DNA of 64,000 nucleotides, from the IMG/VR virus record IMGVR_UViG_3300025316_000590, positions 64,134 through 128,133 of that record. One strand, written 5' to 3'. The notes beneath the pieces were generated by a model that ran no database searches, was not told the DNA's origin, and saw only the letters and a list, made by a program, of their open reading frames with translations. The position numbers and the translations under genes were made by a program. Below, in pieces: positions 43,225 through 48,940 of the stretch (within the stretch, counting starts at the first letter, position 1; each line of letters starts with the position of its first letter). Origin of the DNA: a virus (lineage: Duplodnaviria; Heunggongvirae; Uroviricota; Caudoviricetes).

Positions 43225-43488
43225 GTGATACAGGCACTGAAAGATCTGGTCGCCGCCGACCAAACCGAGGTCGCGGCCATCAAACGGCAGTTGCGTCAGC
43301 ACCGCAAGGAGCGATACGAGCAACTGGCTCTGACTCTGATGGCCGAGTTCAACCTGCCCCGCGACCGTGTGGATTGCCACATCGCAGAGGGCCGACTGCG
43401 TAATACCGACTTCGTTGAAGTTTGCCGTATTGCCGAGCGTCAGAGCATCGCTTCGCGGAGACAACTTGATCAAGGAGTTCGACGATGA
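43225..43488 (+). CDS. Hypothetical protein
   Basis: AAGGA RBS. Confidence 0.55.
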   Translation: MIQALKDLVAADQTEVAAIKRQLRQHRKERYEQLALTLMAEFNLPRDRVDCHIAEGRLRNTDFVEVCRIAERQSIASRRQLDQGVRR

Positions 43489-43841
43489 ACGCAAACGAAC
43501 CAACAATTCTCAGCAGCGAAGAAGCTGGCGTGAGGATCACCCTCACGCCCGACAAAAAGGAATGGCTGGAGCAGGGCCTGAAGATCGAGTGCCTGAAGGT
43601 GGACTGCGGACGCGAGTTTGAAGTGGGCCACATCCTCGATCCCTATGGCCCCGCGCCAGCCCTGCGTCTCGACGCTCCGCTGGGCGTCCGCACCGTAGCC
43701 CTAATCCTGAAGGCTTTGGAACTGCGACTTGTATGTATTCCTCCTGGGCCAGCCAATGGGCCTACAACGGGCTACCAGGCTGAAACAGGGGCCGAACGGT
43801 CGCATCGGGCCGCGACCCAATGGCCAGATTTCACCCAATGA
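43485..43841 (+). CDS. Hypothetical protein
   Basis: AAGGAG RBS; ATGA overlap. Confidence 0.6.
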   Translation: MNANEPTILSSEEAGVRITLTPDKKEWLEQGLKIECLKVDCGREFEVGHILDPYGPAPALRLDAPLGVRTVALILKALELRLVCIPPGPANGPTTGYQAETGAERSHRAATQWPDFTQ

Positions 43842-43868
43842 GACGTAGACCGTCGAATTCGGATTTAT

Positions 43869-43889
43869 TGGCACGGCATTCGCATGATA
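43869..43889 (+). promoter_or_regulatory. sigma54-type promoter
   Basis: TGGCAC-GGCAT-TCGCATGATA. Confidence 0.8.
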
Positions 43890-43894
43890 TGCTT

Positions 43895-44184
43895 ACCGTT
43901 CCTGCGGCCCTTGCCTGAGTGAGGTGAAGGCCCGACAAGCGAGGTGCGAAGTACAAGCAATACCGGCTCCGTCCCCCGACGCCAAGATCGAGGGCACGAG
44001 GCCGCAGGAGCGAACGGTCCTTAGAACGCGGGGTAAAACCTGCGGGTCAGGTCTTACGGGAGTAAGACCGCAGCGGTTCGATTCCGCAGGGATCACCTCA
44101 GAAACCGAACTGGCTCGAAAATCATGGCTGGGCAACACTCGCGCGTGAGCCCACGGGTTCCTGCGGCCCCAAGAGCAGTTCGGT
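43895..44184 (+). ncRNA. Candidate ~290-nt structured RNA with an internal tRNA-like domain (44016-44095)
   Basis: Long-range stems, a GGGA tetraloop hairpin, a TTCGATT T-loop and an acceptor-like stem; no credible ORF. Confidence 0.6.
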
Positions 44185-44198
44185 GGATTCACAGCGAA

Positions 44199-44219
44199 TG
44201 GCACAGCCTTCGCATGATA
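44199..44219 (+). promoter_or_regulatory. sigma54-type promoter
   Basis: TGGCAC-AGCCT-TCGCATGATA. Confidence 0.8.
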
Positions 44220-44277
44220 GGGTAGGCAGAAAGCAAACACGACCGAGTCGGGTGACGGCCCAAAGTGCGGCGTCCCG

Positions 44278-44403
44278 TTGACGCCGCAGGTAAACCGACT
44301 AGAATAAGGGCAGTCGGTTGACCTCACAACTTGGCCGACAAACGAATCATGACTAACCAACCCGTCCTGCGTGACTTGTGAGGTCAAACGTGGGGCGGGT
44401 TGG
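44278..44403 (+). ncRNA. sigma70-type promoter plus endonuclease-leader structured RNA, copy 3
   Basis: TTGACG-16-TAGAAT; 44318-29 pairs with 44376-87; 44357-71 pairs with 44389-403. Confidence 0.7.
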
Positions 44404-44423
44404 CGTCATTTCGGAGTTATATT

Positions 44424-44921
44424 ATGTCGCGTAATCCAGTTGGTACGGCGTGGCGGGACATGAAGTACCGCTGTTTTAATTCAAGCCACCAAGCCTATTT
44501 TAACTATGGTGGTCGTGGAATTACGGTCTGCTTGGGTTTACAAGATTTTACTAAGTTCACCCAGGTTCTAGGCCCACGACCAGAAGGCTACACTCTTGAC
44601 CGCGAAGATAACGAGGGTAGCTACACCTGTGGTGAATGCGACCAGTGCCGGGAGAATGAGTGGGTGAAGAACGTAAGGTGGGCTACGCGAAGTGATCAGC
44701 AGCTTAACCGAAGGACAACGAATCATACCGTACTGTACAGGGGTGTAAGTCTCCATCTTGGAAAGTACTACTTAGCCCAAATTCGCTGTAACGGGTTACT
44801 ACAATACGTGGGGTGTTTTCCTACGGCAAGGGAAGCCGCCATCGCGTACAACCAGGCGGCTACAGCCATTCGAGGGGCGAACGCTAAGATAAACCGAATT
44901 CGGATTCAGACCGGCACGTGA
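44424..44921 (+). CDS. HNH-type endonuclease with AP2 domain
   Basis: WRDMKYRCFN..YGGRGITVC..LDREDNEG..NVRWAT and YRGV..YLAQI..EAAIAYN. Confidence 0.85.
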   Translation: MSRNPVGTAWRDMKYRCFNSSHQAYFNYGGRGITVCLGLQDFTKFTQVLGPRPEGYTLDREDNEGSYTCGECDQCRENEWVKNVRWATRSDQQLNRRTTNHTVLYRGVSLHLGKYYLAQIRCNGLLQYVGCFPTAREAAIAYNQAATAIRGANAKINRIRIQTGT

Positions 44922-44932
44922 TTCGCATGTTA
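44912..44932 (+). promoter_or_regulatory. sigma54-type promoter
   Basis: CGGCAC-GTGAT-TCGCATGTTA, overlapping the HNH stop codon. Confidence 0.7.
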
Positions 44933-45023
44933 ATTCTTCTGAAATAGGTAGGCTAACCGATAGTAATAAACGCTTACGGTTCACCCGCCTCGGTTCTATA
45001 AACCACAAACCCCTGAAACGACC

Positions 45024-45650
45024 ATGCTAGACAAAACATTCATCCTCGGCGGCAAGGCCATCTTCACCCTTGAGGTTTCGCCGGCCTTCCAAGCAGCCAA
45101 CGCGAGTGCCAAGCCGCACTATACCTACAAGGTCACGCACAAGGCCCCGACCCCGCAGTACCCAAACGAGAAGTGGTTCGTGGCCCTGCTGACCGGCCCT
45201 GATAACACCAACGACTATCAGTACCAGGGGATGCTCGACGCCGCGACCGGAATTTTCATTCGCGGCAAGAAGGCCCTGCCCGAGACCTGCCACCCCCTGC
45301 GGCTGTTCGCCCGAACCATGAAGGCGATTTGGGAAGGCCGCAGCGAGCAGATCGAAGCGGCTGGTTTCAGCCTGCACCACGAAGGACGGTGCGGCTGCTG
45401 CGGTCGCCGCCTGACCACCCCGGCCAGCATCGAGCTGGGCATCGGGCCTGAGTGTGCCGCGAAGCGAGGCTTGGGCCTTGCGGTCGCCGCCGTACACGCG
45501 GCTGACGAGGATATCGACCTTACGGCAGAGCAGCGGGGCGTGCTGAACGCTCTGGGTGTAGAACCTACAGCCGCTGCCCAAAAAGCCCTTGTGCGGGCGG
45601 GCATTCCGACCTACAACACGCCCAACGTACAGCTTTCCCTTTTGAGCTAA
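45024..45650 (+). CDS. DUF6011-like Zn-finger protein
   Basis: GRCGCCGRRLTTPASIELGIGPECA. Confidence 0.8.
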   Translation: MLDKTFILGGKAIFTLEVSPAFQAANASAKPHYTYKVTHKAPTPQYPNEKWFVALLTGPDNTNDYQYQGMLDAATGIFIRGKKALPETCHPLRLFARTMKAIWEGRSEQIEAAGFSLHHEGRCGCCGRRLTTPASIELGIGPECAAKRGLGLAVAAVHAADEDIDLTAEQRGVLNALGVEPTAAAQKALVRAGIPTYNTPNVQLSLLS

Positions 45651-47413: not shown

Positions 47414-47789
47414 GGGGGCGAATTGGATTCGACCGGGCAGCTAGAAGATTGAGTTGCGTGTCGTGGTTGGTCAGCAGGCCACGTTAATAGCCGACCAAAA
47501 ACTTACTTGCCAAAAACAAGTTCGAGAAGGCTCCGGCCTTCGCCCTCGTGGCCTAATAACCACGAGCCGACTGCGAACCCATCCGAGAGGTTCAAAAGCC
47601 GGCTGTAAACTCGGATCGTTCACGGTCGCTGCTGGTCACGCCGTGGATTAAAAATGCTACCGGCTGGTCGAACGACAACCCTGTTGATCCGGGGATCGCG
47701 AGACGACAGCTTGCAAATAGGATCGACTACACACGTAGACGCTTGATCGGAAATGTCGCGGGACGCGGGTTCGATCCCCGCCGCCTCCA
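47414..47789 (+). ncRNA. ssrA: tmRNA
   Basis: 5' GGGGGCG..GGATTCGAC and 3' GGGTTCGATCCCCGCCGCCTCCA with G3-U70. Tag ORF 47509-47556 encodes AKNKFEKAPAFALVA*. Confidence 0.95.
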
Positions 47790-47862
47790 CTAGGCCGACT
47801 GCACGCCGGGACTACATCTACCATGAACGAAGATGTCTCGGCAAACACCTCGTCGGCCTTTT

Positions 47863-48816: not shown

Positions 48817-48940
48817 TGGAGCATACGGGGATCGAACCCGCAGGCGAATGGCTACGCTGCGAGTCGGTCGCCTCCATTGCGCGGTAGCGACCGCCGCCCT
48901 GCGTAACTATTCAGCATCCGCGCCGCGTGCGGCATGCCCC
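48817..48940 (-). ncRNA. tRNA-Ala-identity tRNA-like RNA (non-canonical body)
   Basis: Acceptor GGGGCAT/ATGCTCC-A with G3-U70; T-arm GCGGG-TTCGATC-CCCGT; ~80-nt interior without a standard D or anticodon arm. Confidence 0.65.

Follow-up and report, generated by a model that had tools for sequence, protein, structure and literature searches.

The element described here lies in the early/replication region of a phage whose 192,133-bp record is rated 99% complete; the window, the whole 64,000-nucleotide stretch of DNA that was analysed, corresponds to bases 64134-128133 of that record. The same phage is also present in freshwater and lake-sediment metagenomes from several studies. The features of the locus, in window coordinates, are as follows.

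43485-43841: 118-aa gene with an unassigned product, upstream of the element
43869..43889, + strand: promoter P1, TGGCACGGCATTCGCATGATA, sigma54-type with -24 GG and -12 GC; predicted +1 at ~43895
43897..44012, + strand: D1, a 5' hairpin whose basal helix spans 13-14 bp (43897-43910/43998-44012) beneath an irregular upper part
43898..43910, + strand: copy 1 of the 13-mer GTTCCTGCGGCCC, the 5' strand of the D1 basal helix
44016..44097, + strand: tRNA-like cloverleaf, an 80-nt domain (44016-44095) followed by CC
44104..44184, + strand: D3, a 3' hairpin closed by ACCGAACUG/CAGUUCGGU and present in the MFE fold
44157..44169, + strand: copy 2 of GTTCCTGCGGCCC, inside D3, which could replace copy 1 on 44000-44011
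44199..44219, + strand: promoter P2, with the motif of P1, heading the leader of the next genes
44276..44961, + strand: mobile HNH endonuclease cassette, inserted in the leader downstream of P2 and outside the RNA
44425 (ATG) to 44921 (end): HNH endonuclease gene, downstream (PHROG 374, E = 3.5e-29)
45024-45650: DUF6011 gene, downstream of the HNH gene
Beyond the DUF6011 gene, farther downstream: DnaB-like helicase gene
47262: tRNA-Met, downstream of the element
47414-47792: standard tmRNA (166 bits), ~3.3 kb downstream of the element
~48817-48940, minus strand: second anticodon-less tRNA mimic, with G3-U70, a T-arm and a long hairpin replacing the anticodon arm

The neighbourhood is thus rich in tRNA-type genes: tRNA-Met and the tmRNA lie 3.2-3.4 kb downstream, and the interval within 3-5 kb of the element also holds the second anticodon-less RNA, which is alanine-type. 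The HNH cassette is a separate matter. A contig from sequencing run X2 joins position 44275 to 44962 with GCGTGAATAC between them, and the same GCGTGAATAC sequence occurs in a relative (L103) from which the HNH gene is absent; we therefore regard the cassette (44276-44961) as a later insertion into the P2 leader. In another relative (L017), homology ends at ~43731 with an unrelated gene beyond, and this break, taken together with the HNH insertion, places the whole unit in a mosaic region.

The promoter motif, TGGCAC-N5-TYGCATGATA, has 20 matches in the window (three or fewer mismatches) compared with 0.48 expected, all of them oriented in the local gene direction, and 19-20 of the sites carry the sequence and spacing of a sigma54-dependent promoter (TGGCAC-N5-TTGC). 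It is evidently a genuine signal that recurs in the phage. Among its copies, the conserved block extends past the sigma54 consensus (GCATGATA), and TAGAAA stands near the predicted start of many of them, though not of P1. P2 is conserved in L103, with 93% identity across the 3' strand of D3 and P2. A scan of IMG/VR for the motif returned only five single matches. The leader that P1 would produce is 529 nt long, the longest among the 19 promoters listed, and stable hairpins also open other transcripts predicted from the same promoter class. The initial annotation had reported two sigma54-type motifs flanking the region and described the RNA as sigma54-driven. Both motifs are present, at 43869-43889 and 44199-44219, and fit the consensus; the designation of sigma54 as the driver is unsupported, as the phage genome encodes neither sigma54 nor an enhancer-binding ATPase as activator. 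Sigma54-driven transcription of the element is therefore a possibility that the motif suggests.

The interval 43895-44198 was judged at the outset to hold no credible open reading frame, and this view stands. Searches of Pfam and PHROG returned nothing for either a 164-aa antisense ORF (43893-44387) or a 74-aa sense ORF, and the alignment to L103 contains 1-nt indels in the region, so a protein-coding reading was rejected. The Rfam search proposed by the initial annotation, run on 43600-44500, matched no family even at E <= 10. A group I intron or HEARO-type RNA tied to the HNH gene was likewise rejected, given the lack of an Rfam match and the separate insertion of the HNH cassette.

The MFE fold of 43895-44198 comprises three independent domains: D1, the cloverleaf and D3. 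D1 is considerably more stable than shuffled sequence (z = -3.9, none of 200 shuffles equally stable), and its basal-helix pairs have probabilities of 0.92-1.0. A stem beginning at the predicted +1 and pairing with 44000-44018 had been proposed; the stem exists but its register is shifted, with 43897-43909 pairing with 44000-44012 (13 bp) plus the pair 43910-43998. The closing stem of the 3' domain, ACCGAACTG/CAGTTCGGT, is present in the MFE fold as originally described, and D3 as a whole has ordinary stability (z = -0.7). A search for an intrinsic terminator after the RNA, between P1 and the downstream genes, found none, so that transcription is likely to run on past P2 into the HNH and DUF6011 genes. 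The idea of a single ~290-nt RNA consequently lacks support, its three parts also folding independently.

The central domain is built from the following parts.

44016-22/44088-94, + strand: acceptor stem GGUCCUU/AGGGAUC, 7 bp, with G-U at 2:71 and 6:67
44024-44048, + strand: arm 1, with outer GA/UC pairs, an internal loop, a 6-bp CGCGGG/CCUGCG stem and a GUAAAA loop
44050-44069, + strand: arm 2, GGUCUUAC-GGGA-GUAAGACC, 8 bp with a GNRA tetraloop, in the anticodon-arm position
44073-44087, + strand: T-arm GCGG-UUCGAUU-CCGC, 4 bp with a canonical loop
44095, + strand: discriminator A44095, followed by CC (A-CCT in the DNA)

The cloverleaf is the MFE structure of this domain (z = -5.0, 0 of 200 shuffles equally stable, MFE frequency 0.30), and in the full-length context its pair probabilities are 1.0 for arm 2, 0.8 for arm 1, 0.76 for the T-arm and 0.65 for the acceptor stem. 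All the arms first reported recur in this fold, including the acceptor stem GGTCCTT/AGGGATC, the 8-bp GGGA arm, the GCGG-TTCGATT-CCGC T-arm and the A-CCT end. The arm with the GTAAAA loop was correctly recognized, its stem being 6 bp plus GA/TC outer pairs rather than 5 bp. The term 'D-armless', by contrast, does not apply, as the domain forms a four-arm cloverleaf. In outline, the element retains a tRNA's four arms, with its acceptor stem and T-arm; an 8-bp helix sealed by a GNRA tetraloop stands where the anticodon arm would be, and a hairpin that is longer and likewise closed stands in for the D-arm.

Several observations connect this domain to tRNA. Its T-loop, UUCGAUU closed by G-C, is a canonical tRNA T-loop; across the 192-kb genome there are seven T-arm-like motifs, and five of them lie within tRNA-type genes (the cloverleaf element, tRNA-Met, the tmRNA, an odd tRNA and the second anticodon-less mimic). 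A covariance model built from the cloverleaf domain alone (R1) found no paralogue of the cloverleaf in the phage genome. In Sphingomonadaceae, it gave one match of ~24 bits in each of 21 of 151 genomes, and all six matches checked by ARAGORN were tRNA-Ala(CGC); as a pointer to the host, this family is at most a faint one. In the R1-tRNA-Ala alignments, the GA/UC pairs of arm 1 coincide with D-stem pairs one and two, and arm 2 falls on the anticodon arm. Because the model retrieves tRNA-Ala genes with the arms in register, we conclude that the cloverleaf is tRNA-derived: the D-loop has become a closed hairpin, the anticodon loop has been sealed and one T-stem nucleotide has been lost (a 7/4 acceptor branch).

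Compared with tRNA (RF00005), the element shares the four arms, the 7-bp acceptor stem, the discriminator A and the G-C-closed UUCGAUU loop of the TPsiC type, and has similar linker lengths. No full CCA is encoded, as in the phage's own tRNA-Met; CCA is also absent from the tmRNA and the second tRNA mimic and, more generally, from every tRNA-type gene of the phage. The differences are concentrated in the other arms. Where a tRNA has a 7-nt anticodon loop on a 5-bp stem, the element has an 8-bp stem and a GGGA tetraloop (44050-44069); where a tRNA has U8 and a D-arm with a 3-4-bp stem, A14 and G18G19, it has A8 and, lacking G18/G19, a GUAAAA loop on a 2+6-bp stem; and its T-stem of only 4 bp makes an acceptor branch of 11 bp, not 12. 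Neither tRNA detector registered it, with no RF00005 match at E <= 10 in 43600-44500 and no ARAGORN call. The tRNA-like domain of tmRNA resembles the element in being an anticodon-less mimic with an acceptor stem and T-arm. In tmRNA (RF00023), however, distant 5' and 3' ends enclose a tag reading frame and pseudoknots, alanine identity is conferred by G3-U70 and SmpB is the partner, whereas the element fits compactly into 80 nt, carries G2-U71 and encloses no reading frame. We rejected a tmRNA assignment on the basis of the missing Rfam and ARAGORN calls, the acceptor strands being 65 nt apart and the G-U at 2:71.

We then considered how the domain varies among relatives. Assemblies of the phage itself, which come from several lakes and years, are all 100% identical here and thus uninformative about variation. 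One partial variant, X7, comes from a 177-nt contig of a freshwater run in a different study. Over 44045-44082, a stretch that spans arm 2 and the T-arm's 5' half, it agrees with the phage at 37 of 38 positions, and its next 30 bases upstream, GGCCCTCAGAGGGGTGGGTAACACCACCTT, align to 44016-44044. In arm 1, CGCGGG/CCTGCG is replaced by GGGTGG/CCACCT, so that three of the six pairs are doubly changed and all six remain paired; slid-alignment controls gave 0-1 doubly changed pairs, but, with only two sequences to compare, the statistics of covariation are weak, 60 of 500 shuffles reaching the observed value. The arm 1 loop differs by one base (GUAAAA to GUAACA). The 5' strand of the acceptor stem has two changes (GGCCCUC), and its 3' partner lies beyond the contig end. 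The comparison indicates that what is kept of arm 1 is its helix, and what is kept of arm 2 and the T-arm's 5' half is their sequence, although recent recombination, rather than constraint, could account for how closely the two variants agree in arm 2. Together with the strong fold statistics and the lack of an Rfam match, the compensatory changes in arm 1 bear out the initial suggestion of an undescribed non-coding element or tRNA mimic.

The best relative, L103, is a lake contig of 1.5 kb; its DUF6011 protein and that of the phage share 74% identity. It begins exactly at D3, with the cloverleaf region outside its span, and the D3 and leader sequences that flank the cloverleaf in the phage have homologues in it. 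Its D3 closing stem, ACCGAACCG...CGGTTCGGT compared with ACCGAACTG...CAGTTCGGT, contains one compensatory change (U-A to C-G) and surrounds an extra promoter and a 130-nt hairpin module. Identity to L103 is only 77% in the D3 interior, compared with 69% at third codon positions of the neighbouring gene. For D1, the relatives supplied no homologue.

Wider searches returned few homologues. With blastn, the 1.6-kb region had no match among 50,697 phage records, and the 83-nt domain had only chance-level T-arm matches in the phage collection. Exact-pattern scans of IMG/VR for the 3' half, the D3/P2 junction and arm 2 gave 0 matches, as did two pattern scans of JGI metagenome contigs. Single-protein locus searches of IMG/VR with the 118-aa, DUF6011 and DnaB-like proteins yielded no confirmed relative. 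An alignment-based DnaB search retrieved 80 loci with identities of 33% or less, and R1 found nothing in these loci, in a DUF6011-bearing 48-kb phage or in the relative L016 (79% DnaB identity). A home-made scan for non-tRNA cloverleaves across 1.1 Mb of distant-relative loci detected none.

What might such an RNA do? Our leading, still tentative, reading is that 44016-44095 encodes a tRNA-derived, non-decoding mimic that is cut out by host tRNA-processing enzymes and acts in trans. The scheme, in which we infer the transcription, ends, stability, processing and binding partner of the element, would start with early transcription from P1, placing the domain inside a longer non-coding precursor made up of D1, the cloverleaf and D3. 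Host RNase P would then cut 5' of G44016, and the 3' end would be trimmed after A44095 and CCA completed. The resulting ~80-nt RNA would work in trans as a tRNA look-alike, occupying, or being used by, a protein that reads the tRNA body or acceptor end and for which the anticodon is not needed. The domain's acceptor stem of 7 bp, its T-arm and its 3' ACC are features by which RNase P is known to recognize substrates. A perfect 8-bp helix with a GNRA cap is unlike the expected product of anticodon-arm decay and counts in favour of a mimic. Other findings count against it. The searches yielded a single homologue of the cloverleaf, itself partial, and the proposed RNase P site lies just 3 nt downstream of the end of a stable hairpin. 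With no G18/G19-type loop in its D-arm substitute, a 4-bp T-stem and A8, the domain need not adopt an L-shape or be recognized by RNase P and other tRNA enzymes. As for partners that the phage might itself supply, its genome contains no gene for a CCA-adding enzyme, SmpB, RtcB, Pth (PF01195), Pth2 (PF01981) or Ro60.

The chief competitor, doubtful in our estimation but deserving of weight, is that the domain is a cis-acting processing or stability element, no more than a signal for cleavage by RNase P and RNase Z ('tRNA punctuation', known from mitochondrial transcripts and MALAT1-mascRNA), with an excised piece that has no function of its own. Cleavage would part D1 from the downstream early mRNA (HNH and DUF6011) or set the 5' end of that mRNA. 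The missing terminator between P1 and the genes fits this account, as the domain then probably lies within the unusually long P1 leader, and so do the stable hairpins with which other transcripts of the promoter class begin. Acceptor stem, T-arm and ACC are also what RNase P needs, as generally understood and as discussed for YrlA RNAs (PMC4201824). For cleavage, however, a minihelix of acceptor stem and T-arm suffices, which leaves the compensatory changes of arm 1 and the near-invariance of arm 2 unexplained, and P2, situated between the cloverleaf and the genes, is able to express them alone. Because arms 1 and 2 are both kept although RNase P and RNase Z can do without them, we argue for a role beyond that of a cleavage signal and, on the same ground, rank the trans-acting mimic above the cis-acting element.

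A decaying tRNA gene, the relic of an ancestral phage tRNA with no present function, seems an unlikely origin for these features. It would account for a sequence that is tRNA-derived yet missed by tRNA detectors, for the non-canonical A8, 4-bp T-stem and absent D-loop, for a position in a mosaic region (L017 homology ending at ~43731 and an HNH cassette nearby) and for the very small number of homologues. Decay would not, however, turn a 5-bp stem and 7-nt loop into a perfect 8-bp GNRA-capped helix, nor produce three compensatory double substitutions in arm 1, and it sits poorly with a fold far more stable than shuffled sequence and with a sequence that is identical across phage assemblies from several lakes and years.

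We think it very unlikely that the whole ~290-nt transcript is one regulatory RNA in which the two copies of GTTCCTGCGGCCC alternate on 44000-44011 and thereby control processing or read-through. The repeat that the initial annotation described is real. In the whole 192-kb genome, the 13-mer has two exact copies and no more, those at 43898 and 44157, and either copy is able to pair with 44000-44011. By our own estimate, such a repeat within 300 nt would arise by chance less than 1 time in 1000; the alternative helix would be 12 bp long with no mismatch, and both folds retain the cloverleaf. The alternative folds that were proposed on this basis are not supported, however. Forcing the 3' copy to pair with 44000-44011 changed the energy from -126.3 to -118.9 kcal/mol, a cost of +7.4 kcal/mol that leaves the alternative an equilibrium probability of ~0, and the alternative fold excludes the D3 closing stem, the sole covarying feature of D3. 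In L103, the sequence at the 3' 13-mer site is GGGTTCCGGATGCCCG; the 3' copy is not conserved there and a different local hairpin forms instead. Given the energy cost, the negligible probability and the lack of conservation of the 3' copy, we find no support for a switch.

A DNA-level role as an attP core or homing site copying the 3' end of a host tRNA gene is barely credible: the 3' 24 nt (GGTTCGATTCCGCAGGGATCA, there followed by CCA) occur once in 185,579 species genomes, in Sphingomonas sp. Leaf208, where they form a lone 3' fragment next to an IS3 element, and HNH endonucleases are active in the region, but this single 21-mer match, which includes the common T-loop, is about at chance level, and a complete cloverleaf with its 5' strand, two internal hairpins and a covarying arm 1 argues for selection on RNA. 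No tyrosine integrase was found in the phage, which makes an attP role in particular unlikely.

Another class to be weighed is that of the YrlA RNAs, non-decoding tRNA mimics that are present in phages (Chen et al. 2014, PMC4201824). The M. smegmatis YrlA is cleaved by RNase P and has CCA added (PMC4201824). The YrlA gene is adjacent to that for Ro60, the Ro60-binding stem is formed from the 5' and 3' ends of the RNA with the motif GNCGAAN0-1G, and the tRNA module is permuted, comprising a T-arm, a closed acceptor-like stem and a D-arm (PMC4201824). By analogy, the element would be functionally most like YrlA-type Y RNAs and the tRNA-like domain of tmRNA, although it shows none of their defining features. 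That it is itself a YrlA-type Y RNA, with a tRNA-like module on a stem that binds Ro60 (Rsr) and tethers a nuclease, is extremely improbable. The sequence AGCGAAC (44009-44015) is one base short of the Ro60-binding motif, lacking its first G. The element differs from YrlA in its ordinary, unpermuted arm order and open acceptor stem; the 99%-complete phage genome has no match to Ro60/TROVE (PF05731) and no RtcB gene; and there was no Rfam match of any sort at E <= 10. The rsr-yrlA-rtcBA operon of Salmonella is sigma54-dependent, a parallel that favours the Y RNA reading.

Other tRNA-shaped RNAs lie within longer transcripts. The mascRNA of MALAT1, the tRNA punctuation of organelles and the stable RNAs C and D in the tRNA cluster of phage T4 are excised by RNase P and 3' tRNA processing and are non-decoding. 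The element has the tRNA shape in common with them and no sequence or family relatedness; they are eukaryotic, organellar or specific to T4.

Phage tRNA genes are usually explained by codon supply or by the replacement of tRNAs cut by host defences, and a tRNA-shaped RNA with a sealed anticodon fits neither. We consider the element a real, unusual tRNA-derived RNA element that is predicted to be non-decoding. A sealed anticodon alongside a kept acceptor stem and T-arm points to proteins that read the tRNA body and, if such mimics are matured and stable, they would represent a new layer of phage-host interaction at tRNA-binding enzymes. Going further, large phages may carry an undescribed class of tRNA-derived RNAs with sealed anticodons, of which this phage would have two, expressed from early sigma54-consensus promoters and matured by the host to serve as uncleavable decoys or acceptor-end carriers; this generalization is speculative and, on present evidence, improbable. 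If it were true, such RNAs might, for instance, titrate a defence enzyme with which the host targets tRNAs, or might be charged for extra-ribosomal use. Our literature search found no description of phage tRNA mimics with a sealed anticodon arm, and an IMG/VR catalogue of 10,006 candidate RNAs mentions tRNA-like candidates without using the word 'anticodon'; standard tRNA finders and Rfam miss such mimics. Comparative support for the element is thin. The example is nonetheless compact, consisting of one promoter and one 80-nt domain, and its natural variant indicates which parts are free to change (arm 1 and the acceptor stem) and which are not (arm 2 and the T-arm).

Modules that combine a promoter with a hairpin seem to be mobile as units, because one such module sits inside the homologue of D3, the 3′ hairpin of the RNA unit, in a 1.5-kb lake contig (L103) from the relative with 74% protein identity:

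L103:116-256, extra promoter motif with an RNA of about 130 nt, inserted within the D3 homologue

The promoter motif copy of this module reads TGGCACACGGGTTGCATGATA, and its RNA contains a 14-bp stem (GCCGAAGCTGGTTC...GAACCAGCTTCGG). Upstream of the RNA unit in the phage, the 118-aa gene departs at its 3′ end (window 43731-43841) from its 78%-identical homologue in another relative, L017, where the protein is 86 aa long, terminates ...LKALELRLAAMA and is followed directly by an unrelated gene; the present tail of the 118-aa gene may have been created when the RNA unit inserted. Downstream, the P2 leader carries an insertion, an HNH endonuclease cassette (window 44276-44961) that lies within a conserved leader hairpin. 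With the cassette in between, the two strands of the leader stem (near 44245-44262 and near 44975-44993) are now separated by 700 nt, and at the corresponding spot both L103 and a contig of freshwater metagenome run X2 have GCGTGAATAC. Copies of the HNH gene that are approximately 95% identical occur in differing flanks in contigs of runs X7-X9.

Promoters of one sequence class recur across the phage:

Window 27243-63931, and G000:C1:30031 and 30434 on the whole phage record, promoter class TGGCAC-N5-TYGCATGATA

Many copies have (T/C)AGAAA 6-9 nt beyond the motif, close to the inferred start. Most leaders measure 18-76 nt, and the few long ones include those of 358 nt after promoter 42841, 271 nt after 34480 and 241 nt after 35280; further non-coding RNAs may be hidden in such long leaders.

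Two other tRNA-type genes of the phage also depart from the standard form:

Window 48817-48940, minus strand, second anticodon-less tRNA-like RNA
G000:C1:44689-44763, about 19.4 kb before the window start, 75-nt tRNA with no identity assigned (ARAGORN call)

The minus-strand RNA combines a GGGGCAU/AUGCUCC acceptor containing G3-U70 (alanine type) with the T-arm GCGGGUUCGAUCCCCGU, and a long closed hairpin takes the position of the anticodon arm. The 75-nt gene is a further non-standard tRNA within the same phage as the cloverleaf, the 80-nt tRNA-like domain of the RNA unit; ARAGORN gives it a 6-nt anticodon loop, UUCUAA, in which the anticodon could be UCU or CUA.

Among 185,579 species genomes, the 3′-terminal 21 nt of the cloverleaf had a sole exact match, in Sphingomonas sp. 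Leaf208 (L114:1713-1736, minus strand). This match is an isolated fragment, GGTTCGATTCCGCAGGGATCACCA, rather than a full tRNA-like gene; it shares the unusual 4+7 spacing of the cloverleaf, encodes CCA and adjoins an element of the IS3 type, whose ALIL pseudoknot scores 98.7 bits. The match could reflect chance or an att-type remnant.
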